UHGV virus genome: UHGV-2113578
Reading direction: 5' to 3' (one strand)
DNA: 16,259 nt
DNA from: a virus
Position 1 is the first letter of the stretch. Each line of letters opens with the position of its first letter. A model generated the notes under the pieces. The model made no database searches, was not told where the DNA came from, and saw nothing but the letters and a program-made list of their open reading frames with translations. Both the position numbers and the translations under genes were made by a program. Positions 1 through 16,225 of the stretch are shown here, piece by piece.

Positions 1-14
1 TAAAACGTTTTTCA

Positions 15-665
15 TCAGCGACCAATCACCACAACCTGACCACCATCACCTTCATCTGCCGTGCTGATCTCCTGAGATACCACCCGCGACCCCACACGCA
101 TTTCACCGTACAGAACGGGCAGGACATTGCCCTGGGCAACCATATTATCCAGTGAAGAAAAATAGGTGTTCTGTTTGCCGTTATCCGTTGTCTGTGTGCG
201 GGGGGTTTTGGGTTTAGGGGCCAGCATCTGTGCAACACCGCCAAGCGTCATACTGGCACCGAGAGAAAACAGCAGATTACTCGCCATAATTCCTACCCCC
301 GGCATCCATATAGCAACCGCCATAACAGCCGCCCCCAGCACAGCCTGAAACACACCGCCACTTTTGGCTCCTGCCAGACGCGGCACGATATGGATCACAG
401 CACCATTTGCCAGCGGTTCATTAAGACGGGCTGATAATTCCGTTTCACCTGTATCACGCCCGGCAATGCGTACCTGATACCAGCCGTCGCTCAGCTTCTG
501 ACGAAACGCCGGGAGCTGTGTGGCCAGTGCCCGGATGGCTTCAGCCCCCGTTTTCACACGAAGGTCGATGCGGCGACCAAATCGTTGTAAATCCCCGTAA
601 AGGCAGATGCGTGCCATGCCCGGTGACGCCANNNNNNNNNNNNNNNNNNNNNNNNNNNNNNNNNN
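15..665 (-). CDS. I: Tail tip assembly protein I (gpI-like); C-terminal portion and stop present, start codon lies inside or next to the N gap at 632-665
   Basis: Translation after the gap (ASPGMARICLYGDLQRFGRRIDLRVKTGAEAIRALATQLP ... GDGGQVVVIGR) matches lambda gpI as I recall it. Stop TGA at 15-17. Gene order K-I as in lambda. Confidence 0.85.
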   Translation of the reverse strand, partial: XXXXXXXXXXXXASPGMARICLYGDLQRFGRRIDLRVKTGAEAIRALATQLPAFRQKLSDGWYQVRIAGRDTGETELSARLNEPLANGAVIHIVPRLAGAKSGGVFQAVLGAAVMAVAIWMPGVGIMASNLLFSLGASMTLGGVAQMLAPKPKTPRTQTTDNGKQNTYFSSLDNMVAQGNVLPVLYGEMRVGSRVVSQEISTADEGDGGQVVVIGR

Positions 666-1301
666 GGTGTACCTCTCTCGTTTGCTCAGTTGTTCAGGAA
701 TATGGTGCAGCAGCTCGCCGTCGCCGCAGTAAATTGCGGCGTGATTCGGCACCGATGAACCAAAACAGCACAGCAGCACATCGCCCGGCTGTGCCGCTGA
801 CAACGGCACCTGATACAGCCCCGTCGCCTCCAGATTATCCAGATAGAGATTCTGGCCGTTACGCCACCAGTCATCCTCACGATGAAAGTCCGGCATCTCA
901 ATCCCCGCCAGATGATAAGCATCCCGGAACAGTGTGTAACAGTCCGTCACACCGTGCTCAAAGCGCCGCCCGGTGAGATGCGGCACACAGCGGAACTTAT
1001 GAATCGTCCCCCGGCAGACCAGCCACCACGGCAAATCACTCTGCACCTGCAGCCGCCGGTCGGCCTCACTCAGCCAGGGCAGACCACCGGGGTGGCTGTG
1101 GACCAGCGCCACCACCTCACCCTGCATTTCTGCCTGCAGCCAGTCTTCCGGCGACATACGGAAATACGCCTCCGGCTCACCGGAGATATTCACGCAGGGG
1201 AAATATCTTTCCCCCTCCGGCGTGCTTACCACGAAGCCGCACGACTCCGCTGGCGCACATCGCCGGGCGTGCGCCAGAATCGCTGATTCTGTCTGTGTCA
1301 T
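554..1301 (-). CDS. K: Tail tip assembly protein K (gpK-like) with JAMM/MPN and NlpC/P60-like motifs; interrupted by the N gap, so the true length is uncertain
   Basis: ATG at 1299-1301, 5 nt after the L stop. N-terminal MTQTESAILAHARRC, H-x-H-x7-S-x2-D motif (HSHPGGLPWLSEAD), Cys and His region (GVTDCYTLF ... HAAIY). After the gap a different frame reads WRHRAWHASAFTGIYNDLVAASTFV then TGA at 554-556, giving the expected K/I frame overlap. Confidence 0.85.
632..665. other. Assembly gap (34 N)
   Basis: Run of n characters in the sequence; it falls inside the K/I overlap region. Confidence 1.
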
Positions 1302-1306
1302 GGGAT

Positions 1307-1999
1307 TTACTGCGAAAGTTTGTTAATGGAAAGGAAGCCGCCAAAGTTGCCGACGTTATTGCGGAACTTACAACCGCTCAGGCATTTGCTGCATTTATCC
1401 TTCGTGATATCGGACGTTGGCTGGTCATATTCATCCGCGACAGCCGGACCGCTATAACCGCACTCGTCACCGCGATAGGTCCAGGTGCAGGTGTTGGCCA
1501 GCATGATACGTCCCGGAAAAACAGCGCCATCCGTTTCCGTCGGCGTGGACAGTACAAAGGAGGCACTCACCGCGCTCAGTTCGCTGCACTGCTCAATGCG
1601 CCAGCGGCTGATCACCTCCTGCTCCGGATCGGCATAACTGTTGACGAAGTTCACCGCATCCAGAAAACGGGCGTAAACCTTACGCCGGACCACCGTTCCG
1701 CCGACCAGACTCTGCATATCTTCCGCCATCCCGGTGACCATACCGTACAGGTTAGAAACCGTCAGCGTGGGGCGCGTACTGGTGCCTTTGCCATTCAGTT
1801 CAAAACCGCTCCCCTGAATGGGATACGGCTGATACTGTCGCCCCTGCCAGGTGACCGGCTCACCTTTTTCGTTCTGCTCATTACAGAAAAAATAACGTTC
1901 TCCACCGACCTCTGTCAGGTCGATTTCCCAGAACACCACGCTGGCCGACTGCTCCGCACGGGTGCATTCATTCAGTGTTTCCTGCCGGATATCCTGCAT
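1307..1999 (-). CDS. L: Minor tail protein L (gpL-like), with a C-terminal cysteine cluster
   Basis: 230-aa ORF MQDIRQETLNECTRAEQSAS ... matching lambda gpL. Start ATG overlaps the M stop as TGATG at 1997-2001. Confidence 0.9.
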   Translation of the reverse strand: MQDIRQETLNECTRAEQSASVVFWEIDLTEVGGERYFFCNEQNEKGEPVTWQGRQYQPYPIQGSGFELNGKGTSTRPTLTVSNLYGMVTGMAEDMQSLVGGTVVRRKVYARFLDAVNFVNSYADPEQEVISRWRIEQCSELSAVSASFVLSTPTETDGAVFPGRIMLANTCTWTYRGDECGYSGPAVADEYDQPTSDITKDKCSKCLSGCKFRNNVGNFGGFLSINKLSQ

Positions 2000-2328
2000 C
2001 AGTTCACCACCTGTTCAAACTCTGCGCTGAACTCAACACGCAGCATACTGACCCGCGACGACCATTTTGCGCAGGTCACCTTTATCTGCCGCCACTCATA
2101 AGGCGGCGTCCACAGAAAGGATTTCCAGCCCCCGTGCTCTTCCAGAAACGACTCCAGTACCGTGGCCTCCTCACGGGGGACAGAAAGCGTCACGCTGTAT
2201 GTTTTCAGGTTGGCATTCAGCCCGGCAGGCGCTCGCTGGGAATAGCCATCACCAAAGCGCACCTTTCTTACAGAAGGGGCCGAAGCCACATCCATACCGG
2301 GTTTCACTTTCCAGCGGAAGGTTTTCAT
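1999..2328 (-). CDS. M: Minor tail protein M (gpM-like)
   Basis: 109-aa ORF MKTFRWKVKPGMDVASAPSVRKVRFGDGYSQRAP ...; same length as lambda gpM. ATGA overlap with the H stop. Confidence 0.9.
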   Translation of the reverse strand: MKTFRWKVKPGMDVASAPSVRKVRFGDGYSQRAPAGLNANLKTYSVTLSVPREEATVLESFLEEHGGWKSFLWTPPYEWRQIKVTCAKWSSRVSMLRVEFSAEFEQVVN

Positions 2329-4886
2329 CGTCCACCTCCGGAGAACAGGCCACCATCACGCATCTGTGTCTGAATTTCATCACGGGCACCCTTGCGGGCC
2401 ATGTCATACACCGCCTTCAGAGCAGCCGGACCTATCTGCCCGTTCGTGCCGTCGTTGTTAATCACCACATGGTTATTCTGCTCAAACGTCCCGGACGCCT
2501 GCGACCGGCTGTCAGCCAGACTGCCCGGTGTACCGACATAACCACCGGTGGCATAGCCGCGCATCAGCCGGTAGAGATTCCCCACGCCAATCCGGCTGGT
2601 TGCCTCCTTCGTGAAGACAAATTCACCACGGTGAACAATCCCCGCTGGCTCATATTTGCCGCCGGTTCCTGTGAATCCTCCGGTTGCAAAATGGAATTTC
2701 GCCGCAGCGGCCTGAATGGCTGTACCGCCTGACGCGGATGCGCCGCCACCAACAGCCCCGCCAATGGCGCTGCCGATACTCCCGACAATCCCCACCATTG
2801 CCTGCTTAAGCAGAATTTCTGTCATCATGGACAGCACGGAACGGGTGAAGCTGCGCCAGTTCTGCTCACTGCCGGTCAGCATCGCTGCCATATTCTGTGC
2901 AATACCATCAAAGGTCTGCGTGGCTGCACTTTTTACCTGCGACATACTGTCCGTGGCGCTCTCTTCCCACTCACTCCAGCCGGACTTCAGGCCTGCCATC
3001 CAGCTCCCGCGAAGCTGGTCTTCAGCCGCCCAGGTCTTTTTCTGCTCTGACATGACGTTATTCAGCGCCAGCGGATTATCGCCATACTGTTCCTTCAGGC
3101 GCTGTTCCGTGGCTTCCCGTTCTGCCTGCCGGTCAGTCAGCCCCCGGCTTTTCGCATCAATGGCGGCCCGTTTTGCCCGTTGCTGCTGTGCGAATTTATC
3201 CGCCTGCTGCGCCAGCGCGTTCAGGCGCTCCTGATACGTAACCTTGTCGCCAAGTGCAGCCAGCTGGCGTTTGTATTCCAGCGTCTCATCTTTATGCGCC
3301 AGCAGGGATTTCTCCTGTGCGGACAGCTGGCGACGTTGTGCCGCCTCCTCCAGTACCGCGAACTGACTTTCTGCCTTCCACAAATCCCGGCGCTGCTGGC
3401 TGATTTTCTCATTCGCTCCGGCATGCTTCTCCAGCGTCCGGAGTTCTGCCTGAAGCGTCAGCAGGGCAGCATGAGCACTGTCTTCCTGACGATCGCCCGC
3501 AGACACCTTCACGCCGGACTGTTTCGGCTTTTTCAGCGTCGCTTCATAATCCTTTTTCGCCGCCGCCATCAGCGTGTTGTAATCCGCCTGCAGGATTTTC
3601 CCGTCTTTCAGTGCCTTGTTCAGTTCTTCCTGACGGGCGGTATATTTCTCCAGCGGCGTCTGCAGCCGTTCGTAAGCCTTCTGCGCCTCTTCGGTATATT
3701 TCAGCCGTGACGCTTCGGTATCGCTCTGCTGCTGCGCATTTTTGTCCTGTTGAGTCTGCTGCTCAGCCTTCTTTCGGGCGGCTTCAAGCGCAAGACGGGC
3801 CTTTTCACGATCATCCCAGTAACGCGCCCGCGCTTCATCGTTAACAAAATAATCATCCTTGCGCAGATTCCAGATGTCGTCTGCTTTCTTAAACGCAGCC
3901 TCTGCCTTAATCAGCATCTCCTGCGCGGTATCAGGACGACCAATATCCAGCACCGCATCCCACATGGATTTGAAGGCCCGCGCAGTCCTGTCTGCCCAGG
4001 TCTCCAGCGTGCCCATGTTCTCTTTCAGGCGGCGGGTCTGGTCATCAAACCCTTTCGTTGCGGCCTCGTTCGCCGCCTGCAATGCCCCGGCTTCATCGCC
4101 GGAACGCTGCAACTGAGCAACATACGCAATCTGCTCCGCCGTCACGTTATGGAACTGGCGTGCCATCGCCGTCAGCCCCGACGTCGGGTCTGTGGTCAGC
4201 TTCCCGAAGGCTTCAGCGACCTTGTCCACCTCCACGCCGGATGCAGAGGAGAAACGCGCCACACTCTGGCTGATGGACGCAATCTGAGCCTCACCGCTTA
4301 CCCCCGCCTTAACCAGTGCGCTGAGTGACTCGCTGGTCTGGTTAAACGTCAGCCCTGCCGCCTGCCCGGCTCTGGACAGGACCAGCATACGATCTGCCGT
4401 CAGTCCCGCCTGATTGCCGGAAAGGACCAGCATTTTGTTGAAATCGGACAGGGTTGAGTTGCCCTGATACCAGGCATACGCCAGCGCACCGGTCGCCACC
4501 GCCAGCGAGGTGGCCCCCACCATCGGCAGGGTGATCGCACCGGCAAGCCCCCTGAACATGGGGATCATCCCGCCGAAGGAGTCCTTCACCTGCCCCCCCT
4601 GTTGCAGCAGGATCAGCCACGGACTTTGCCCGCCTGCAAGCTGCGTGGCCACGTCGGTGAACTGTGCAGGCAGCATACGCATGGCGGCTTTATACTGCCC
4701 GACGGAAATCCCCGCTTTCTGTGCAGCCAGCGCCTGTCGGCTCAGCGACTGTTCAACGACTGCCGCTGTTTTTTTCGCATCACTTTCCGTACCGGAAAAA
4801 TGACGCCTGACTCTGGCCATCTGCTCGTCAAATCTGGCCGCATCCAGACTCAAATCAACGACCAGATCGCCTACCGGTTCAGCCAT
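2325..4886 (-). CDS. H: Tail tape measure protein H (gpH-like), 853 aa
   Basis: 853-aa ORF, the same length as lambda gpH. N-terminal MAEPVGDLVVDLSLDAARFDEQ, long Ala/Gln/Glu/Lys/Arg-rich helical region, Gly-rich hydrophobic segment near the C-terminus. Strong SD (AGGAGGAG) upstream of the ATG at 4884-4886. Confidence 0.95.
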   Translation of the reverse strand: MAEPVGDLVVDLSLDAARFDEQMARVRRHFSGTESDAKKTAAVVEQSLSRQALAAQKAGISVGQYKAAMRMLPAQFTDVATQLAGGQSPWLILLQQGGQVKDSFGGMIPMFRGLAGAITLPMVGATSLAVATGALAYAWYQGNSTLSDFNKMLVLSGNQAGLTADRMLVLSRAGQAAGLTFNQTSESLSALVKAGVSGEAQIASISQSVARFSSASGVEVDKVAEAFGKLTTDPTSGLTAMARQFHNVTAEQIAYVAQLQRSGDEAGALQAANEAATKGFDDQTRRLKENMGTLETWADRTARAFKSMWDAVLDIGRPDTAQEMLIKAEAAFKKADDIWNLRKDDYFVNDEARARYWDDREKARLALEAARKKAEQQTQQDKNAQQQSDTEASRLKYTEEAQKAYERLQTPLEKYTARQEELNKALKDGKILQADYNTLMAAAKKDYEATLKKPKQSGVKVSAGDRQEDSAHAALLTLQAELRTLEKHAGANEKISQQRRDLWKAESQFAVLEEAAQRRQLSAQEKSLLAHKDETLEYKRQLAALGDKVTYQERLNALAQQADKFAQQQRAKRAAIDAKSRGLTDRQAEREATEQRLKEQYGDNPLALNNVMSEQKKTWAAEDQLRGSWMAGLKSGWSEWEESATDSMSQVKSAATQTFDGIAQNMAAMLTGSEQNWRSFTRSVLSMMTEILLKQAMVGIVGSIGSAIGGAVGGGASASGGTAIQAAAAKFHFATGGFTGTGGKYEPAGIVHRGEFVFTKEATSRIGVGNLYRLMRGYATGGYVGTPGSLADSRSQASGTFEQNNHVVINNDGTNGQIGPAALKAVYDMARKGARDEIQTQMRDGGLFSGGGR

Positions 4887-5717
4887 ACCGGACTCCTCCT
4901 GCGATCCCTTCTGATACTGTCATCAGCATTACGTCATCCTCCGTCATGTCCGCCACATCCGGGGAAGCGGGGATAACTTCATTCCCGTCCGGGCCAAAGC
5001 GGACGCCTCCGGCAAGCCCTGCCGCTTTCTGCATCAGCACATCATCTTCAGGCTCTTCGTCAGCCTCACGCCGGTTCAGCAGACTGAAATCCAGCGGATG
5101 CATATCCGGATCGCTGAAAAACAGGCTGAGCACGGTGTACGTCAGCCCGGAAAAGTGCATATCCAGCAGAACATCATGAAAATAATGGGTACTGTAAAAG
5201 CGGTGCCAGTCGGCATACTCCGTGGATGACATCCCGGCAAGCATGGCACGCCAGTCGGGTCGCCCCATCTCGCGCGCCAGTTTCAGGGCAAAACTCAGCT
5301 CACCGTCGAACACTTTCCCGCAGAAACAGGCTCTGCAGGCCCGGCGTCCTCTGCCTGTTCAGGGGCATCATTCACCACAAACTCATACATACCGGACAGC
5401 CGGTACACCACGTTTTCAGCATGAGAAATTGCCTCTGTAGGCCAGGTGGTAAGCACTTCCTGCTCAATCTGTTTAACGGCTTCATTCATGGAAGGCATCT
5501 GCGTCTTCTGCGGATGGTTATGCCACAGGGACATCGCCACCACACAAGCACCGGTTCTGATGGCGTCTTCCACAGTAAACTTCCGGTTGCTGTCTGACTC
5601 CGCCTGTTCTGCCTGCCGTTTCATCAGGGCGAGATGCTCAATACGCTGCAGGGCTGACAGTTCAGAAAGCGTGACGGTCACACCGTTATGTTCAAATGAT
5701 TCGGTTTTCAGGAACAT
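4879..5717 (-). CDS. G-T: Tail assembly chaperone G-T fusion, made by a -1 programmed ribosomal frameshift at GGGAAAG
   Basis: G frame ends at TGA 5295-5297. The -1 frame continues from the slippery heptamer as VFDGELSFALKLAREMGR ... to the stop at 4879-4881, reproducing the lambda G/T arrangement. Confidence 0.85.
5295..5717 (-). CDS. G: Tail assembly chaperone G (gpG-like)
   Basis: 140-aa ORF MFLKTESFEHNGVTVTLSELSALQRIEHLALMKRQ ..., ending ... PVSAGKCSTVS; sits between V and H as in lambda. Confidence 0.9.
   Translation of the reverse strand: MFLKTESFEHNGVTVTLSELSALQRIEHLALMKRQAEQAESDSNRKFTVEDAIRTGACVVAMSLWHNHPQKTQMPSMNEAVKQIEQEVLTTWPTEAISHAENVVYRLSGMYEFVVNDAPEQAEDAGPAEPVSAGKCSTVS
5313..5319 (-). 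promoter_or_regulatory. -1 frameshift slippery heptamer GGGAAAG for G to G-T
   Basis: Minus strand reads CTGCGGGAAAGTGTTCGACGG; the heptamer sits 6 codons before the G stop, and the T reading frame is open from here. Confidence 0.8.
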
Positions 5718-5732
5718 CGCTGACTCTCCGGA

Positions 5733-6473
5733 TTAACTGGCGGTGACGTTGATTTCTGCAACCGCAGCAAGTTCACCATTACCGGATACGACCGGAATGT
5801 TGACCTTGCCTGCAGCAACACCTTTCACGGTGATGGTCATACCACTGACCGACACGGTGGCTTTTGTTTTATCCGCTGACACCGCACGGAAGCTCTTGTC
5901 GGTTGCGCCTTCCGGCTGGAATGCCACGGTCAGCGTGGTGCTCTGCCCTTTCACCACCGAGGTGCTGGCAGGCGTCACGGTCATGCCGGTTGCCGCTGTG
6001 ACCGTGCTGTGATCTTCTGCCATCGACGGACGGCCCACATTGGTGACCTTCACCGTGCGGGTGATCACTTCCTTCGCCGTCACCGCCTTACCGATACTGC
6101 TGACCCAGCCGCGGAACACATCGACCGTGCCATTCGGGAAGCGGATTTTATAGGCTCGGGTATCCCCTTCATTAAACCACGCCAGCAGCGCCTGCTGCCC
6201 CTGCTCTCCGGGCATCCACGCCAGCGTGAAGCTGGTATCTCCGGCAGATTTCTGCCCCTGCCCGGTCGCAGTCCAGTCCGCATCTTCATCATCGAGATAG
6301 CTGTCGTCATAGGACTCAGCGGTCAGTTCGCCGGGCGTCAGGTCTTTAACTTTAGCCAGACGCGACCAGTCAACGTCTGAAAGCGGGTTCGCATAAGGGT
6401 CACCGTTCCCCTTATAAACCCACAGTGTGGTCCCGGCCCCTTTCACCGGCATTACTGGATTTGGTACAGGCAT
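5733..6473 (-). CDS. V: Major tail tube protein V (gpV-like) with a C-terminal Ig-like domain
   Basis: Start taken at ATG 6471-6473 ([22 protein letters not shown]), preceded by GAGGA. The ORF-track start at 6503 would overlap U and is probably an artefactual extension. The C-terminal approximately 90 aa are rich in T/V/S, as in the Ig-like domain. Confidence 0.9.
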
Positions 6474-6480
6474 AGCGTCC

Positions 6481-6876
6481 TCACATTTCATAGGTAATGA
6501 CATAAGTCAGATCGGCTGAACTCCACAGGCCCGCATCATCGTCGCGTCGGTAGTCATAGCCACTGGCCACCATACTGGTGATCAACTCTGACAGTGCCGG
6601 GATATCGCTCATCACCGGATAAATCCGGGACTCCATCCACGAATCCAGCTCTGAATCCGGCACCTGAGCAGGCAGGAAAACTTCGATATGCAGCTCCGCC
6701 TGCCAGGTATCGCTGTCCAGCTCTTCGCCCGTGTATTCAGCGCCGGTGAGATAAACGGCAACTGCCGGAAAATCCGCCTCATCAAAAACAGCGGGGCGAC
6801 CATCAAAAAACGTCGCCCCGGTGTCATGCTTCTCCAGTGCATCCAGTACGGCTGCACGGAGTTCAGTATGTTTCAT
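6481..6876 (-). CDS. U: Tail terminator protein U (gpU-like)
   Basis: 131-aa [36 protein letters not shown] ...; same length as lambda gpU. ATGA overlap with the Z stop. Confidence 0.9.
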
Positions 6877-7451
6877 CGCTTTATTACCATCCTCAGTTGA
6901 TACTGCAGCGCATAGCCCAGCTCTTTCGGAAGACGTTCACGCCGTATCCGCTCAATATTTTGTTTAAACGCCGTGGTCAGCGGCACCGCCATCGGGATTT
7001 TCACCACATCAATGGGGTAACGGTTTTTCCCGGCCACACGCTGCATAACATGCCACCGACCATTTTTCAGTTGCTGAATAAACGCGCCGGGAATACGACG
7101 GTTACCCACCACAAGCACGCTGCCGCCACCTTTCAGGGATGAACGCTGCCCCTTTTTACGACGCCTGCGGCGCGAAAGGACAACCCGCGCATTACCCAGC
7201 TTGATTACGGGCAAATCCCCCCGGTTAACCCTGATTCTGGCCTGCGGATTTTTGACCGTGGCCCTTTTCAGCCTGGCCCTTTCCTTTACCAGTTTCCGGC
7301 GTACCTTTGTCTCACGGGCAACCTGTGACACCGACTGCGATATCGCGGATGAAGCAACGCGGTTAATGGCCATTGCGGCGGCACCGGGCACCGCCGTTCT
7401 GCTGATACGGCTGAGGTTTTCAACGGCCTGCTCAAGACCTTTTATGGCCAT
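6873..7451 (-). CDS. Z: Tail completion protein Z (gpZ-like)
   Basis: 192-aa ORF MAIKGLEQAVENLSRISRTAVPGAAAMAINRVASSAISQ ...; same length as lambda gpZ; SD AAGGGGGA upstream. Confidence 0.9.
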   Translation of the reverse strand: MAIKGLEQAVENLSRISRTAVPGAAAMAINRVASSAISQSVSQVARETKVRRKLVKERARLKRATVKNPQARIRVNRGDLPVIKLGNARVVLSRRRRRKKGQRSSLKGGGSVLVVGNRRIPGAFIQQLKNGRWHVMQRVAGKNRYPIDVVKIPMAVPLTTAFKQNIERIRRERLPKELGYALQYQLRMVIKR

Positions 7452-7816
7452 ACATCCCCCTTCCAGCGGCGACGGTTAACGGCAGGCGGTACGCCCCGCC
7501 CAAGCCAGAGATGACAGCTTCCGCCATCATCCGGCGAAATCCGGTCTATCCAGAAGTTTTCCTCACCGATGGTCAGCGTGTCGCCGCGCCGCAGCTGCCG
7601 CACATCATCAGTCCGGACAAACAGGGACGGGCTGGAGCCTTCAACGCGCACGCCCTGTCCGGCATAGCTGATATTTTCAGGGTCATCAAAAACACCACGT
7701 ATCACAGCACCGGACTGCTCACCGGATGTCATGGTGGCTGACGTTCCCATGTACCCGCGTATCGTTTCATCGGCGCAGGCAATGGCAGCATCGAACAGGT
7801 TATCGAAATCAGCCAC
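7442..7816 (-). CDS. FII: Head-tail joining protein FII (gpFII-like), 124 aa, apparently 7 aa longer than reference lambda FII
   Basis: ORF MADFDNLFDAAIACADETIRGYMGTSATMTSGEQSGAVIRGV ... AVNRRRWKGDVWP, stop TAA at 7442-7444 overlapping the Z start. Confidence 0.85.
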   Translation of the reverse strand: MADFDNLFDAAIACADETIRGYMGTSATMTSGEQSGAVIRGVFDDPENISYAGQGVRVEGSSPSLFVRTDDVRQLRRGDTLTIGEENFWIDRISPDDGGSCHLWLGRGVPPAVNRRRWKGDVWP

Positions 7817-7827
7817 AGCGCCTCCCG

Positions 7828-8223
7828 TTATTGCATTCTGGCCAGGCCGCGCTCTGTCATTTCAGCTGCCACACCGGCAGAGACACGGAACGCCGTTCCC
7901 GGCAGCACAAATGCCACAGCCTCATCCCGCGTGGCGTGAAGTGCATCAGTATGCAGCGTCACCAGTGCCACAACCGTGACCAGATCAGCCGTATCAGTCA
8001 CGGTATCCGGCTGCGCTGATACAACCTCATTTTCATGTCCGGTCAGCGCATTTTCCGGGCTGACAGATGTGTCCTGACCGGCAGCGTCATCCGTGTCATC
8101 AAGCTCCTCTTCCAGCTCTGCCACACGGAGTGCCAGTTCTTCTTTCGTCCCCGTCAGGCTGACATCACGGTTCAGTTGCTCACCCAGCACCTGAAGACGG
8201 GCAATCAGTTCATCTTTCGTCAT
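7828..8223 (-). CDS. FI: DNA packaging / head assembly protein FI (gpFI-like)
   Basis: Start taken at the internal ATG giving MTKDELIARLQVLGEQLNRDVSLTGTKEELALRVAELEEELDD ..., which matches the lambda gpFI N-terminus and length (about 132 aa). The ORF-track start at 8262 is probably an upstream in-frame extension. Confidence 0.85.
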   Translation of the reverse strand: MTKDELIARLQVLGEQLNRDVSLTGTKEELALRVAELEEELDDTDDAAGQDTSVSPENALTGHENEVVSAQPDTVTDTADLVTVVALVTLHTDALHATRDEAVAFVLPGTAFRVSAGVAAEMTERGLARMQ

Positions 8224-8264
8224 AGACTCCTCCACAGAGAGAAAATGGCCCCGAAGGGCCATGA

Positions 8265-9290
8265 TTACGCCAGTTGAACGGACACGAACTCATCAGGGTC
8301 AGCCAGCAGCATCAGCGGTGCTGACTGAATCATGGTGAACTCACGCGCCGGATCGCCGGTAGTCACCCAGTTTTTCGGGTAACGGGCAGAGGCGTTAATG
8401 CCTTCGCGCTGTGCGTCCGCATCCTGAATGCAGCCATAGGTGCGCAGACCGCGAGCCTGAGTGTTCCCCAGCACCATCGTGTTGTCCGGCAGGAAGTTCT
8501 TTTTGACGCCGTTTTCCACGTACTGTCCGGAATACACGACGATGGCCACATCGCCATACATTCCCTTATAGGACACCGCTTTGCCCAGGTCTTTTACCGC
8601 TGTCTCCAGCTCGGAATGAGAGCCGCGACGGGTATCCAGCTTCTCCTTGACGGCTTTGAAGGAACGGAACAGCGCCCAGCCTTTCGGATCAAACACGATG
8701 ATATTCACCACACCGCTGGCGTTCAGCGCGTAGGCTTCGATATCGTCGGTCGGGTCATACGTGGACTTGTCACGCTTGCTCCACTCCGTGCCGCCGGACT
8801 GCGTGATGTTATTCGCCTCACTGCGGCCCATATCCACCTCAACCGGATCGAAGGCTTCACCGGTCATGGTATATTTGCCCTTAAGCACGGCAGAAACTGC
8901 CTGCATCTCTTCGACCTGGGCAATCGCCAGATTTTCATCCAGCATATTCTGCCGAATAATACGGCGACGACGGTAAGCCGGGTCAGCCAGGTTCTGCGGA
9001 TCTTCATCCGGCAGGCGACGCAGGGTCATCTGCGGATTCACCTCATGCTTCGGCTTGACATAACCCGGCGTAAATTCAGAGGTGGAGCCGCCACGGGATC
9101 GGATAACCTCACCGGAAACAATCGGCGAAACGTACAGCGCCATGTTTACCAGTCCCGGAATTTGTGAGAGATAGACTTTTTCCGTGGTGAAAGGATAGGT
9201 TTCACGGAAAAACAGGCGCAGAAACAACGGATCGAACTTAAAGTGATGCTGGGTCGATGCCAGTAATTCTGCAGTTGTATATACAGACAT
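8265..9290 (-). CDS. E: Major capsid protein E (gpE-like, HK97 fold family)
   Basis: 341-aa ORF MSVYTTAELLASTQHHFKFDPLFLRLFFRETYPFTTEKVYLSQIPGLVNMALYVSPIVSG ...; same length as lambda gpE. Confidence 0.95.
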   Translation of the reverse strand: MSVYTTAELLASTQHHFKFDPLFLRLFFRETYPFTTEKVYLSQIPGLVNMALYVSPIVSGEVIRSRGGSTSEFTPGYVKPKHEVNPQMTLRRLPDEDPQNLADPAYRRRRIIRQNMLDENLAIAQVEEMQAVSAVLKGKYTMTGEAFDPVEVDMGRSEANNITQSGGTEWSKRDKSTYDPTDDIEAYALNASGVVNIIVFDPKGWALFRSFKAVKEKLDTRRGSHSELETAVKDLGKAVSYKGMYGDVAIVVYSGQYVENGVKKNFLPDNTMVLGNTQARGLRTYGCIQDADAQREGINASARYPKNWVTTGDPAREFTMIQSAPLMLLADPDEFVSVQLA

Positions 9291-9303
9291 AAATTATTTC
9301 CAT

Positions 9304-9324
9304 AAAAAAAGCCGCACAGGCGGC
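9304..9324 (-). terminator. GC stem-loop followed by a U7 tract in the D-E intergenic region (terminator-like or attenuator/stability hairpin)
   Basis: Minus strand reads GCCGC-CTGT-GCGGC then TTTTTTT, lying between the D stop (9346) and the E start (9290). Confidence 0.4.
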
Positions 9325-9345
9325 CTTTGTTGATGAAGGGGAAGA

Positions 9346-9678
9346 TTAAACGATGCTGATTGCCGTTCCGGCAAACGCGGTCCGTTTTTTCGTCTCGTCG
9401 CTGGCAGCCTCCGGCCAGAGCACATCCTCATAACGGAACGAGCCGGACTTGTAGAACGTCAGTGTGGTGCTGGTCTGGTCAGCAGCAACCGCCAGAATGC
9501 CAACGGCTGCACCGTCGGTGGTGCCATCCCACACAACCAGCTTACGGGTAGTGCCATCCAGCATCAGTGGGGTCATTGCAGGCGTTTTCGCACTCAATCC
9601 GCCAGGCGCAATTGCTGTATGAGCCGGATCACTGTTACCCAGCGGCTGGTAATGGTTAAACTCTTCTTTTGTCGCCAT
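9346..9678 (-). CDS. D: Head decoration protein D (gpD-like)
   Basis: 110-aa [55 protein letters not shown] ...; same length as lambda gpD; SD AAGAGG upstream. Confidence 0.95.
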
Positions 9679-9687
9679 AACTGCCTC

Positions 9688-10305
9688 TTATACCGGTAAA
9701 GCTTCAGGTGTATTAAGTAATTCTTTATTGGTATCAGATGCCAGGTTACCTGCAGCCAGCGGTGCCGGTGCCCCCTGCATCAGACGATCCAGCGCAGTGT
9801 CACTGCGCGCCTGTGCACTCTGTGGTGCAGCTGCCAGAATGCGGCGGGCCGTTTCCACGGTCATACCGGGGGTTTCGGCCAGCACACGTGCCTGTTCTTC
9901 GCGTCCGTGAGCTTCCTCACAGTTGAGGATCCCCATAATGCGGCTGTTTTCTGCCGCAACCGCAGCGGTGATCTGCGCGTTCACGTCCGGCTGCGCCGCG
10001 CTGGCGTTTTCGCCCTCCGTCGCTGGCACCACGTCAGTAACGTCAGCCTGCGAAGCAGTGGCTGAAACAGTTGTTGATTGAGTCTCTTTGGTCATTCGCC
10101 CTCCTGAGAGACGGGATTTACGTGCATCCAGTGCATCACGCATAACGGTGATCGCATCGGTGCTGTTGACAAGTTCATCAGCCAGTCCGGCATCAATGGC
10201 CTCCTGACCGCTGTACACTGCAGCCTCGGTATCCAGCACAGCCTGCACGGACAGGCCGGTATATGCCGACACCTTCTGCGCAAACATCCGGCGGGTTGCA
10301 TCCAT
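9688..10305 (-). CDS. Nu3: Scaffolding protein Nu3, nested in-frame within the 3' part of C
   Basis: In-frame ATG at 10303-10305 (MDATRRMFAQKVSAYTGLS ...), sharing the C stop codon, as in the lambda C/Nu3 arrangement. Confidence 0.7.
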   Translation of the reverse strand: MDATRRMFAQKVSAYTGLSVQAVLDTEAAVYSGQEAIDAGLADELVNSTDAITVMRDALDARKSRLSGGRMTKETQSTTVSATASQADVTDVVPATEGENASAAQPDVNAQITAAVAAENSRIMGILNCEEAHGREEQARVLAETPGMTVETARRILAAAPQSAQARSDTALDRLMQGAPAPLAAGNLASDTNKELLNTPEALPV

Positions 10306-10999
10306 CCGGGACTGCAGTGTCTCCCGGACATCACCCGGTAGATGGCTGTAGGGGTTGCCATCCACCTTATGGCTGCCGCTGTAAATCAGCGTGATTTCCA
10401 CGCCCTGTTTCTCCAGTGCAGCGCCGTAATTACTGTGAGCCATCATGACGCCGATGGAGCCTGTCCGGGCGGTCTGCGTGACCAGACGCCGGGAGGCGGC
10501 ACTGGCAAGCAGCTGACCTGCGCTGCAGTTCATGTCATTGGCCAGCGCCCATACCGGCTTTATGTCACGCACACGGGCGATGATGTCAGCGCAGTCAAAT
10601 GCCCCCGCCACCATCCCGCCGGGCGTGTCCATATCGAGCAGAATGCCGTCCACCATCGGATCGCTGGCAGCCTGTTGCAGACGGGCGATAATGCCGTTGT
10701 AACCGGTCATCCCCGAGTACGGCTGCAGCGCCCGCGTCCGGCTGACCAGCGTGCCGGACACCGGCAGCACGGCGATGCCGTTCATGACCTGATAACTGCG
10801 GGCCTGTCGTGGTCCGTCATCATCACCGGATAATGCCAGCGTCGCGAGTGCCTCCTGGGCAGTCAGGCTGTCGCCGGACACCGCATCCGTCAGGCGGCTG
10901 ATCCCAAGCTGGCCTGCAAGCGCACAAAAGAAAACCCGCGCATAGGCGGGTTCAAGCATCAGCGGCTCATTAAAAGCCATGCTGGCAATATGCGGGAGA

Positions 11000-11019
<20 letters not shown>
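9688..11019 (-). CDS. C: Capsid assembly protease C (gpC-like, ClpP/S49-type), starting at GTG
   Basis: GTG at 11017-11019 preceded by GAGGAGGAG; product (M)TAELRNLPHIASMAFNEPLMLEPAYARVFFCALAGQLGIS ... The ORF-track 488-aa version extends upstream into the B gene and is probably not real. Confidence 0.9.
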
Positions 11020-14700
<3,681 letters not shown>

Positions 14701-14726
<26 letters not shown>

Positions 14727-15246
14727 TCAGCAACCCCGGTATCAGTTCATCCAGCGCGGCTGCTTTGTTCATGGCTTTGATGATATCCCGTTTCAGGAAA
14801 TCAACATGTCGGTTTTCCAGTTCCGGAAAACGCCGCTGCACCGACAGGGGGATCCCGTCGAGAATACTGGCAATTTCACCTGCGATCCGCGACAGCACGA
14901 AAGTACAGAATGCGGTTTCCACCACTTCAGCGGAGTCTCTGGCATTTTTCAGCTCCTGTGCATCGGCCTGCGCACGCGTAAGTCGATGGCGTTCGTACTC
15001 AATAGTCCCTGGCTGGAGATCTGTCTCGCTGGCCTGCCGCAGTTCTTCAACTTCCCGGCGCAGCTTTTCGTTCTCAATTTCAGCATCCCTTTCGGCATAC
15101 CATTTTATGACGGCGGCAGAGTCATAAAGCACCTCATTACCCTTGCCACCGCCTCGCAGAACGGGCATTCCCTGTTCCTGCCAGTTCTGAATGGTACGGA
15201 TACTCGCACCGAAAATGTCAGCCAGCTGCTTTTTGTTGACTTCCAT
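14701..15246 (-). CDS. Nu1: Terminase small subunit Nu1 (gpNu1-like, winged-HTH cosB-binding)
   Basis: 181-aa ORF MEVNKKQLADIFGASIRTIQNWQEQGMPVLRGGGKGNEVLYDSAAVIKWYAERDAEIENEKLRREVEELRQ ...; ATG about 190 bp from cosN, as in lambda. Confidence 0.95.
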
Positions 15247-15267
15247 TGTTCATTCCACGGCCAAAAA

Positions 15268-15384
15268 CAGAGAAAGGAAACGACAAAGGCCCAAAAGTTC
15301 GTTTTCAGCACCTGTCGTTTCCTTTCTTTTCAGGGGGGGGGTTAAATAAAAACATTAAGTTACGGCGAAGAAGAACGGAAACGC
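15268..15384 (-). promoter_or_regulatory. cosB: cosB terminase-binding region: R3-like (15366-15384), R2-like (15307-15322) and R1-like (15268-15285) elements, with an A/T-rich presumed IHF-bending segment between R3 and R2
   Basis: Minus strand reads GCGTTTCCGTTCTTCTTCG ... GGAAACGACAGGTGCT ... TGTCGTTTCCTTTCTCTG. R2 and R1 form a 10-bp inverted repeat, GGAAACGACA / TGTCGTTTCC. Position between cosN and Nu1 matches lambda. Confidence 0.75.
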
Positions 15385-15414
15385 CTTAAACCGGAAAATT
15401 TTCATAAATAGCGA

Positions 15415-15445
15415 AAACCCGCGCGCCTGCCGCCCCGTGGCAGGC
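15415..15445 (-). promoter_or_regulatory. cosN: cosN-like terminase nicking site; inferred 12-nt cohesive-end segment at 15424-15435
   Basis: Minus strand reads CCACGGGGCGGCAGGCGCGCGGGTTTTCGC, which aligns base-for-base with the lambda cos junction (recalled as TTACG|GGGCGGCGACCT|CGCGGGTTTTCGC) but with substitutions in the core. Confidence 0.6.
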
Positions 15446-15828
15446 CACCCCACCGGAAGGACCCGCACAAATGAGAGCGTTTGTCATTAACATTTACAGA
15501 TAAGATGACGTACATCATTGAAACGCCATTCAGCCATATACCGGCAGCATTCGTAGTTGCACTCCGTAACTCTGCGACTAAGGTTAAAAACATGGCCCTC
15601 TTTTGCCACCGGCAAATCTTCAATGGATTTCCCCTGCCGGTTTTTTATTTTCGTCGATGCATAACATTGCATTTACATCAATAGCGGCTATTGTCATTAG
15701 TATGTTGCATCAATGCATGGGTGGTATTGGCGGTCTTCGCCGGCCGGTTCTGTGTAGCTGCTCCCTGTGACCGTTTTTTTATTTCTCACATTATCGCAGC
15801 CCCTCACTGAAGTGCTGCTGTAATGCAA

Positions 15829-15946: not shown

Positions 15947-16225
15947 TTACGGTAATTTCATGAAGGCAAATAGCGGACAGCCCGGATGACGAGCATCTTC
16001 TGTTGCTTCCAGCATTGATTCACCAAACCACTCCGTCGTAGCACGACCATCAGCAGCTTTGTAGTGGAGCAAGTACTGGTTTTCGCCATCCGCATACTGA
16101 GCGCGAGCTTTAACCTCACCCCATTCATCACTGATGCGTACTTCCACCAGTTGTGACAGTTCAAACTTAAACGGAATAGACACGACACCAACTAAAATCG
16201 GTTTGTTTTCTGTTTTTCCCATCAT
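15947..16225 (-). CDS. Hypothetical small protein at the right-arm end, upstream of cos (92 aa)
   Basis: ORF MMGKTENKPILVGVVSIPFKFELSQLVEVRISDEWGEVKARAQYADGENQYLLHYKAADGRATTEWFGESMLEATEDARHPGCPLFAFMKLP, with a strong SD (AGGAGA) 4 nt upstream of the ATG. Same strand as the late operon. I do not recognise a function. Confidence 0.55.
   Translation of the reverse strand: MMGKTENKPILVGVVSIPFKFELSQLVEVRISDEWGEVKARAQYADGENQYLLHYKAADGRATTEWFGESMLEATEDARHPGCPLFAFMKLP

Follow-up and report, generated by a model that had tools for sequence, protein, structure and literature searches.

The 16,259-nt viral genome UHGV-2113578, referred to throughout in its full length as the window, most probably carries the cos site of a lambda-type prophage with a rare natural allele of the cohesive end, belonging to a documented and tolerated polymorphism. 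The allele, GGGCGGCAGGCG, recurs with its flanks in independently assembled Escherichia coli genomes, and adjoins a terminase that is essentially that of lambda.

A variant cosN sequence at the end of a lambda-type left arm

By its sequence, the minus strand of the window represents the left arm of a prophage of the lambda type. It runs collinear with bp 1-15458 of lambda, with a nucleotide identity of 96.5%, and the match stops exactly at window position 15435, the equivalent of lambda bp 1. The genes from Nu1 to I are all present and full length, except at the K/I overlap, which is masked. The cohesive-end sequence and the lambda-family terminase genes adjoining it were located as follows:

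15424..15435, minus strand: cosN cohesive-end sequence GGGCGGCAGGCG, the inferred 12-nt 5' overhang; bp 1-7 as in lambda, bp 8, 9, 10 and 12 different
14701..15246, minus strand: Nu1, terminase small subunit, 181 aa, 98.9% identical to lambda gpNu1 (A75T, L132I)
12801..14726, minus strand: A, terminase large subunit, 641 aa, 99.5% identical to lambda gpA (D185E, V377A, I459V)

The 12-mer stands on the minus strand in the context ...CCTGCC ACG GGGCGGCAGGCG CGCGGGTTTTCGC..., and the letters given for it by a first-pass annotation, its flanks ACG (left) and CGCGGGTTTTCGC (right) included, were exact. The lambda sequence that the annotation had given was also correct, as NC_001416 has GGGCGGCGACCT at bp 1-12. 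The number of differences between the two had been put at about five of 12; alignment gives four (8 G>A, 9 A>G, 10 C>G and 12 T>G, with position 11 the same). The conserved left half of lambda-type cos sites, GGGCGG(C), is identical to lambda over bp 1-7, and the differences fall within bp 7-12, the right half in which polymorphism is tolerated. The annotation had allowed that the canonical sequence might after all be present and have been misread; the alignment shows GGGCGGCAGGCG, and neither GGGCGGCGACCT nor any site two or fewer mismatches away from it was found in the whole window. The register of the 12-mer is confirmed by the records of phages 434 and ev243, which start at the physical left end and whose alignments begin at window 15435.

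The ev243 record (LR597639.1 bp 1-12) opens with GGGCGGCGAC followed at once by CGCGGG, so that the CT of the cohesive end is missing; this is probably an end-assembly artefact of the deposited genome. A run of 34 Ns occupies window 632-665, inside the K/I overlap, where lambda has 30 nt. An apparent 428-aa fused K-I reading frame (15-1301, minus strand) was rejected as a gene, since its frame is shifted by the masked run and reflects masking rather than biology. Three minus-strand genes, FI (7828-8262, 88%), D (9346-9678, 89%) and I (15-630, 79%), stand much further from lambda than their neighbours do (96-100%), and look like small mosaic replacements within an otherwise lambda-like left arm on sequence comparison.

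Packaging elements flanking cosN

We then compared the remaining elements of the site with lambda. The heptamer GGGTCCT we take to be cosQ, corresponding to lambda bp 48473-48479 (Wieczorek and Feiss 2001). The elements of the window are, from left to right on the minus strand:

15458..15464, minus strand: cosQ heptamer GGGTCCT, packaging-termination signal, identical in lambda, where it is placed 23 nt before the nick
15436..15457, minus strand: cosQ-to-nick spacer, 22 nt (lambda 23), with the 13-nt patch GGGGTGGCCTGCC and a terminal conserved ACG, by pairwise alignment to the lambda right end
15422..15423, minus strand: conserved 5'-CG-3' to the right of the bottom-strand nick position; its left counterpart is the CG at 15436-15437
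15386..15418, minus strand: I2, AT-rich segment that separates cosN from cosB (cos bp 18-50; extent according to PMC4856287), identical to lambda
15371..15386, minus strand: cosB R3, gpNu1 binding site, identical to lambda
15350..15362, minus strand: cosB I1, IHF site, identical to lambda
15313..15328, minus strand: cosB R2, inverted gpNu1 site, identical to lambda
15270..15285, minus strand: cosB R1, gpNu1 site, identical to lambda

Coordinates of the four cosB elements were taken from the curated annotation of phage 434. To the right of cosN, bp 13-70 are 100% identical to lambda, and I2 and the cosB array R3-I1-R2-R1, which lie between cosN and the small terminase gene and would confer lambda packaging specificity, are lambda-identical in all five elements. 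CG dinucleotides border both nick positions, the sequence reading A-CG, then GGGCGGCAGGCG, then CG-CGGG. High conservation among lambda-like phages is reported for the 7-bp cosQ, the left cosN half and the pair of CG dinucleotides that flank cosN (PMC4669245).

The flanks had been described as near-identical to lambda and free of indels, which is true of the right side and fails on the left. There, only the ACG next to cosN matches lambda, after which 13 nt differ (GGGGTGGCCTGCC in the window versus GATCCGACAGGTT in lambda) and one nucleotide is deleted. cosQ, itself intact, is consequently separated from the nick by 22 nt, as opposed to 23 in lambda; a function for this spacing is putative, and the spacer varies widely among natural cos sites. 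An assignment of the divergent patch to I2 was rejected, because the literature locates I2 on the other side of cosN, before cosB, in a stretch that the window shares exactly with lambda. Compared with lambda, the site shares the order cosQ-cosN-I2-cosB, cosN bp 1-7 and 11, the CG flanks, I2, R3, I1, R2 and R1, whereas cosN bp 8, 9, 10 and 12, the 13-nt patch, the cosQ distance and the right-arm DNA past cosQ are different. The DNA to the left of cosQ is unrelated to the lambda right end and is about 86% similar to phiSTEC1575-Stx2k. It contains a 92-aa open reading frame upstream of cos (window 15947-16225, minus strand) that matches PHROG 1935, a family of unknown function (E = 4.5e-51); the small open reading frames between it and cos gave no family match.

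Between I1 and R2 the window has a C9 homopolymer (AACCCCCCCCCTG; 15333-15341, minus strand; cos bp 95-103), located 83 nt from cosN, where relatives have AAAACACCCCCTG or AAAATACCCTCTG. The tract is unique among approximately 115 lambda-type cos loci examined, the closest variant being C7, and may represent either a genuine cluster of substitutions or an error of sequencing.

Comparison with published right-half variation

Variation of the kind seen in the window has been described. Differences at bp 7-12 are common among lambda-like phages, occurring at bp 9 and 12 in N15 and phiD326 and at 8, 9 and 11 in Gifsy-1 (Feiss et al. 2015, PMC4669245), and the cosN of mEp213/LLS, GGGCGGCGCGCT, differs at bp 9 and 10 (PMC12315714). 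We verified the N15 sequence as GGGCGGCGTCCG. Like the window, these phages have their differences within bp 7-12 and retain the left half, the CG flanks and cosQ. The expectation that lambdoid phages share a highly conserved cosN is therefore sound for the left half and not for the right. Changes in the right half had an unmeasurable effect on cos cleavage and a minimal phenotype: C11G was silent, whereas the symmetric G2C cost about 10-fold, and lambda terminase gave equal yields with lambda or N15 cosN (PMC4669245). The reason proposed is that TerS bound at R3 places TerL for the bottom-strand nick, rendering that nick insensitive to local sequence (PMC4669245).

Two differences set the window apart from these precedents. 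It has four changed positions, more than N15, phiD326, Gifsy-1 or mEp213/LLS, and it combines them, bp 10 included, whereas the published tests were of single mutations and of the two-position N15 allele (PMC4669245). In addition, the terminase of the window is essentially that of lambda, whereas the TerL of N15 shares 64.9% identity with the lambda protein and that of LLS matches it only weakly. A literature search with both 12-mers and their complements returned unrelated papers alone, and the allele of the window is apparently unnamed in the searchable literature.

Recurrence of the allele in E. coli

We next determined how often the allele occurs elsewhere, using 32-nt queries that were counted only when the exact 12-mer matched, against 5,426 complete E. 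coli genomes. Canonical GGGCGGCGACCT was found at 7,394 places in 4,089 genomes, and GGGCGGCAGGCG at 9 places in 8 genomes, or approximately 0.1% of E. coli lambda-type cos sites. The carriers are SE11 (two places), EC21Z-048, EC71, APEC E19035, three 729_* isolates and NCCP 15734, and the allele was found once more, with the exact left flank of the window and a different right side, in MB06234. A second alternative, GGGCGGAAGGCG, occupied 166 places in 155 genomes, 16 of them on plasmids. This sister allele is carried by E. coli prophages (ETEC H10407, TUM1881) and by two phage records, PhiR46_1 and YDC107_1. From bp 8 to 12 it matches the window, as the left flank and the lambda-type cosB often do too; it differs in having A rather than C at bp 7, and is about 18 times commoner in E. 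coli (166 versus 9 places). In IMG/VR, 82 contigs had alternative alleles, about 78 of the A type (GGGCGGAAGGCG) and 4 of the C type (GGGCGGCAGGCG). GGGCGGCAGGCG would most likely be derived from, or ancestral to, GGGCGGAAGGCG by the one substitution at bp 7.

A collection of 50,697 phage records contained neither the exact GGGCGGCAGGCG 12-mer nor the 22-nt cosQ-cosN spacer of the window. The record PhiR46_1 (PV340565), titled a complete genome, has GGGCGGAAGGCG adjoining lambda-type Nu1 and A. Each base state of the window 12-mer is therefore known in a deposited phage, since bp 1-7 occur in lambda and bp 8-12 in PhiR46_1. As support for function of the window allele this record is suggestive; the sign that the phage has been propagated is its GenBank host field, where ECOR13 is listed, a host other than the strain suggested by the phage name.

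YDC107_1 (CP025712.1) belongs to Ravinvirus, the genus of N15-like phages, yet has lambda-type I2 and R3. Together with the 16 plasmid places of GGGCGGAAGGCG, this suggests that there are plasmid-prophages that combine a lambda-type cos with an alternative allele.

The allele is shuffled independently of terminase

If the right half of cosN were matched to the enzyme, residues of gpA should track the allele. The full-length gpA proteins encoded downstream of cos were compared position by position, 35 from canonical and 38 from alternative loci, and no residue tracked the cosN allele or showed a fixed difference between the two groups. The three differences of the window gpA from lambda are all conservative; I459V is common in both allele groups, and D185E and V377A were seen in the window only. 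A contig with the sister allele (L164) encodes a gpA that is 100% identical to lambda's. Alternative alleles occur with lambda-type cosB (about 65 loci), with H10407-type cosB (19 loci; Nu1 identity to lambda 53-83%) and with two further cosB types, as well as with a DUF1441 TerS and a larger terminase in MB06234, so that they adjoin at least 4-5 different cosB/terminase modules. With no allele-specific gpA residues and several modules, the allele appears independent of terminase type.

The left flank is combined just as variously. The flank of the window with its 22-nt spacer was found in E. coli genomes with canonical cosN (12), with GGGCGGAAGGCG (44) and with GGGCGGCAGGCG (1). In MB06234 (NZ_CM129882.1 2810199-2813234), a window-like left flank and GGGCGGCAGGCG are followed, straight after CGCGG, by an unrelated right side encoding a DUF1441-family small terminase and a larger terminase; because the right side switches directly at this point, a mosaic junction lies at the very edge of cosN. 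Since alleles, flanks and terminase modules combine in these various ways, cos behaves as a mosaic junction, and the allele could move between phages for that reason. From these sequence comparisons we conclude that right-half alleles and packaging enzymes are reshuffled independently of one another.

With respect to cosQ-to-nick spacing, two classes were observed: 23 nt in lambda and most others, and 22 nt in the window, H10407, TUM1881, SE11 and others. The 22-nt class comprises at least 57 complete E. coli genomes and all three cosN alleles, and no isolated phage record was found with it. A covariation of the 22-nt spacing with the allele, hinted at by the IMG/VR contigs, was rejected on the strength of the 12 E. 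coli genomes in which canonical cosN has the same spacer.

Symmetry and annealing of the cohesive ends

The first-pass annotation had pointed to a local dyad, CCTGCC...GGCAGG, as kept. It is present in the window and is not conserved among relatives. CCTGCC is mostly accompanied by GGAAGG (18 loci), CCTTCC (in SE11) by GGCAGG, and the alternative allele also occurs on lambda-type left flanks without the dyad; the perfect CCTGCC/GGCAGG pairing is the exception, and we rejected it as a conserved feature. Its centre, moreover, lies about 5 bp to the left of the nicking symmetry axis. The published measure of symmetry takes in a 16-bp cosN, made up of the 12 bp and the 2 bp bordering them at either end. 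It counts 5 symmetric pairs in lambda, likewise 5 in the window, where G3:C10 is lost and C4:G9 gained, and 4 in the A allele. The predicted duplex energy of the window's own ends is -20.0 kcal/mol versus -19.0 for lambda, and the window ends would thus anneal mutually as stably as lambda's. Annealed to a lambda-type complementary end, a window end has a predicted energy of only -11.8 kcal/mol.

Proposed processing of the site

The mechanism by which the window allele would be processed is not new, and is described here by analogy with lambda. gpNu1 bound to R3, R2 and R1, with IHF at I1, would anchor gpA. This subunit would nick the top strand at the left edge of bp 1 and the bottom strand at the boundary of bp 12 and 13, leaving a 12-nt 5' overhang, GGGCGGCAGGCG, at the left end, with its complement at the right end; termination at the downstream cos would be directed by cosQ together with cosN. 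In the right half, the bottom-strand nick would depend on the terminase anchored at cosB, whatever the local sequence; it follows that an essentially lambda terminase should cut the window allele normally.

Alternative explanations

Besides a genuine cos variant, the first-pass annotation had offered a damaged nicking site and an assembly error. The latter is scarcely credible. The window does have oddities, such as the unique C9 homopolymer 83 nt away and the masked run of 34 Ns, and the stretch is rich in GC. However, 8 complete E. coli genomes, the work of different laboratories, share the identical 32-nt sequence across the site, the same 12-mer and flanks recur in MB06234 and 4 IMG/VR contigs, the sister allele is in 155 genomes, and four specific substitutions without an indel would be an atypical pattern of error. 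As the alleles recur in independent E. coli genomes and IMG/VR contigs, an assembly artefact is excluded, and the proposal of a genuine variant is borne out. A damaged or poorly functional site in a non-packaging prophage, owing to the four changes and perhaps also to the 1-bp shorter cosQ-cosN distance, has more to recommend it and is nevertheless unlikely. The rarity of the allele (9 places versus 7,394 canonical) is also what would be expected of a mildly deleterious variant, and none of the 50,697 phage records has the allele or the 22-nt spacer. The change at bp 10 breaks the symmetric pair G3:C10, and the changed bases adjoin the bottom-strand nick, which at termination needs cosQ (PMC4856287). 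Against this, every genetically required element is intact (cosQ, the left half of cosN, both CGs, I2, R3, I1, R2 and R1), the changes are confined to the tolerated right half (PMC4669245), and the structural genes, as far as the left arm in the window extends, are without decay, Nu1 to I being full length apart from the masked overlap. PhiR46_1, a phage record, has the same bp 8-12. Furthermore, the allele and its sister are found on several flank haplotypes and with several terminase modules, which implies horizontal spread by working phages.

We also considered that cosN and terminase might form a co-evolved pair with a new nicking specificity, in which gpA is adapted to the different right half. 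The 4-5 changes of the alternative alleles exceed those of any cosN variant in PMC4669245 or PMC12315714, and within the IMG/VR sample the 22-nt spacer accompanied alternative alleles solely (21 loci, versus 0 of 107). Yet the gpA of the window is 99.5% identical to lambda's, with one substitution that is polymorphic regardless of allele and two that are restricted to the window; there are no segregating gpA residues among the 35 and 38 sequences, a lambda-identical gpA adjoins the sister allele in L164, several unrelated TerS/TerL modules adjoin alternative alleles, and canonical cosN has the 22-nt spacer in 12 E. coli genomes. This explanation is largely refuted and very improbable. A rare, tolerated natural allele of a lambda-type cos site is thus the reading that we prefer.

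Possible consequences of right-half alleles

A further, improbable idea is that the alternative right-half alleles (GGGCGG[C/A]AGGCG) constitute cohesive-end compatibility types. If so, packaging from a canonical to an alternative cos would yield a chromosome whose ends have 4-5 mismatches, and because predicted annealing would fall from about -20 to about -12 kcal/mol, such a mixed-end chromosome would cyclize poorly. Mixed-cos settings of this type would include tandem or neighbouring prophages, cos-bearing islands and mixed concatemers. The allele would then be a cheap barrier to helper/satellite hijacking or hybrid packaging instead of being neutral, and the linked 22-nt cosQ spacing could be part of the same adaptation.

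For the preferred reading, a rare tolerated allele, the significance is more modest. The adjacency of an essentially lambda terminase (gpA 99.5-100%) to a cosN differing at 4-5 of the 6 right-half positions offers natural corroboration of the laboratory conclusion that cosB-anchored terminase positions the bottom-strand nick, and would extend that conclusion to wild prophages; as a discovery it carries little weight. In practical terms, cos finders that match GGGCGGCGACCT would miss approximately 2% of E. coli lambda-type cos sites, which affects prophage end calling, genome re-orientation and cos-based cloning. The exact lambda cosQ-cosN-I2 sequence was also found in assemblies of Raphidiopsis brookii D9 and Aeromicrobium sp. 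PE09-221 and in an Alicyclobacillus fastidiosus 'plasmid', where it is likely to be lambda DNA contamination or control DNA.
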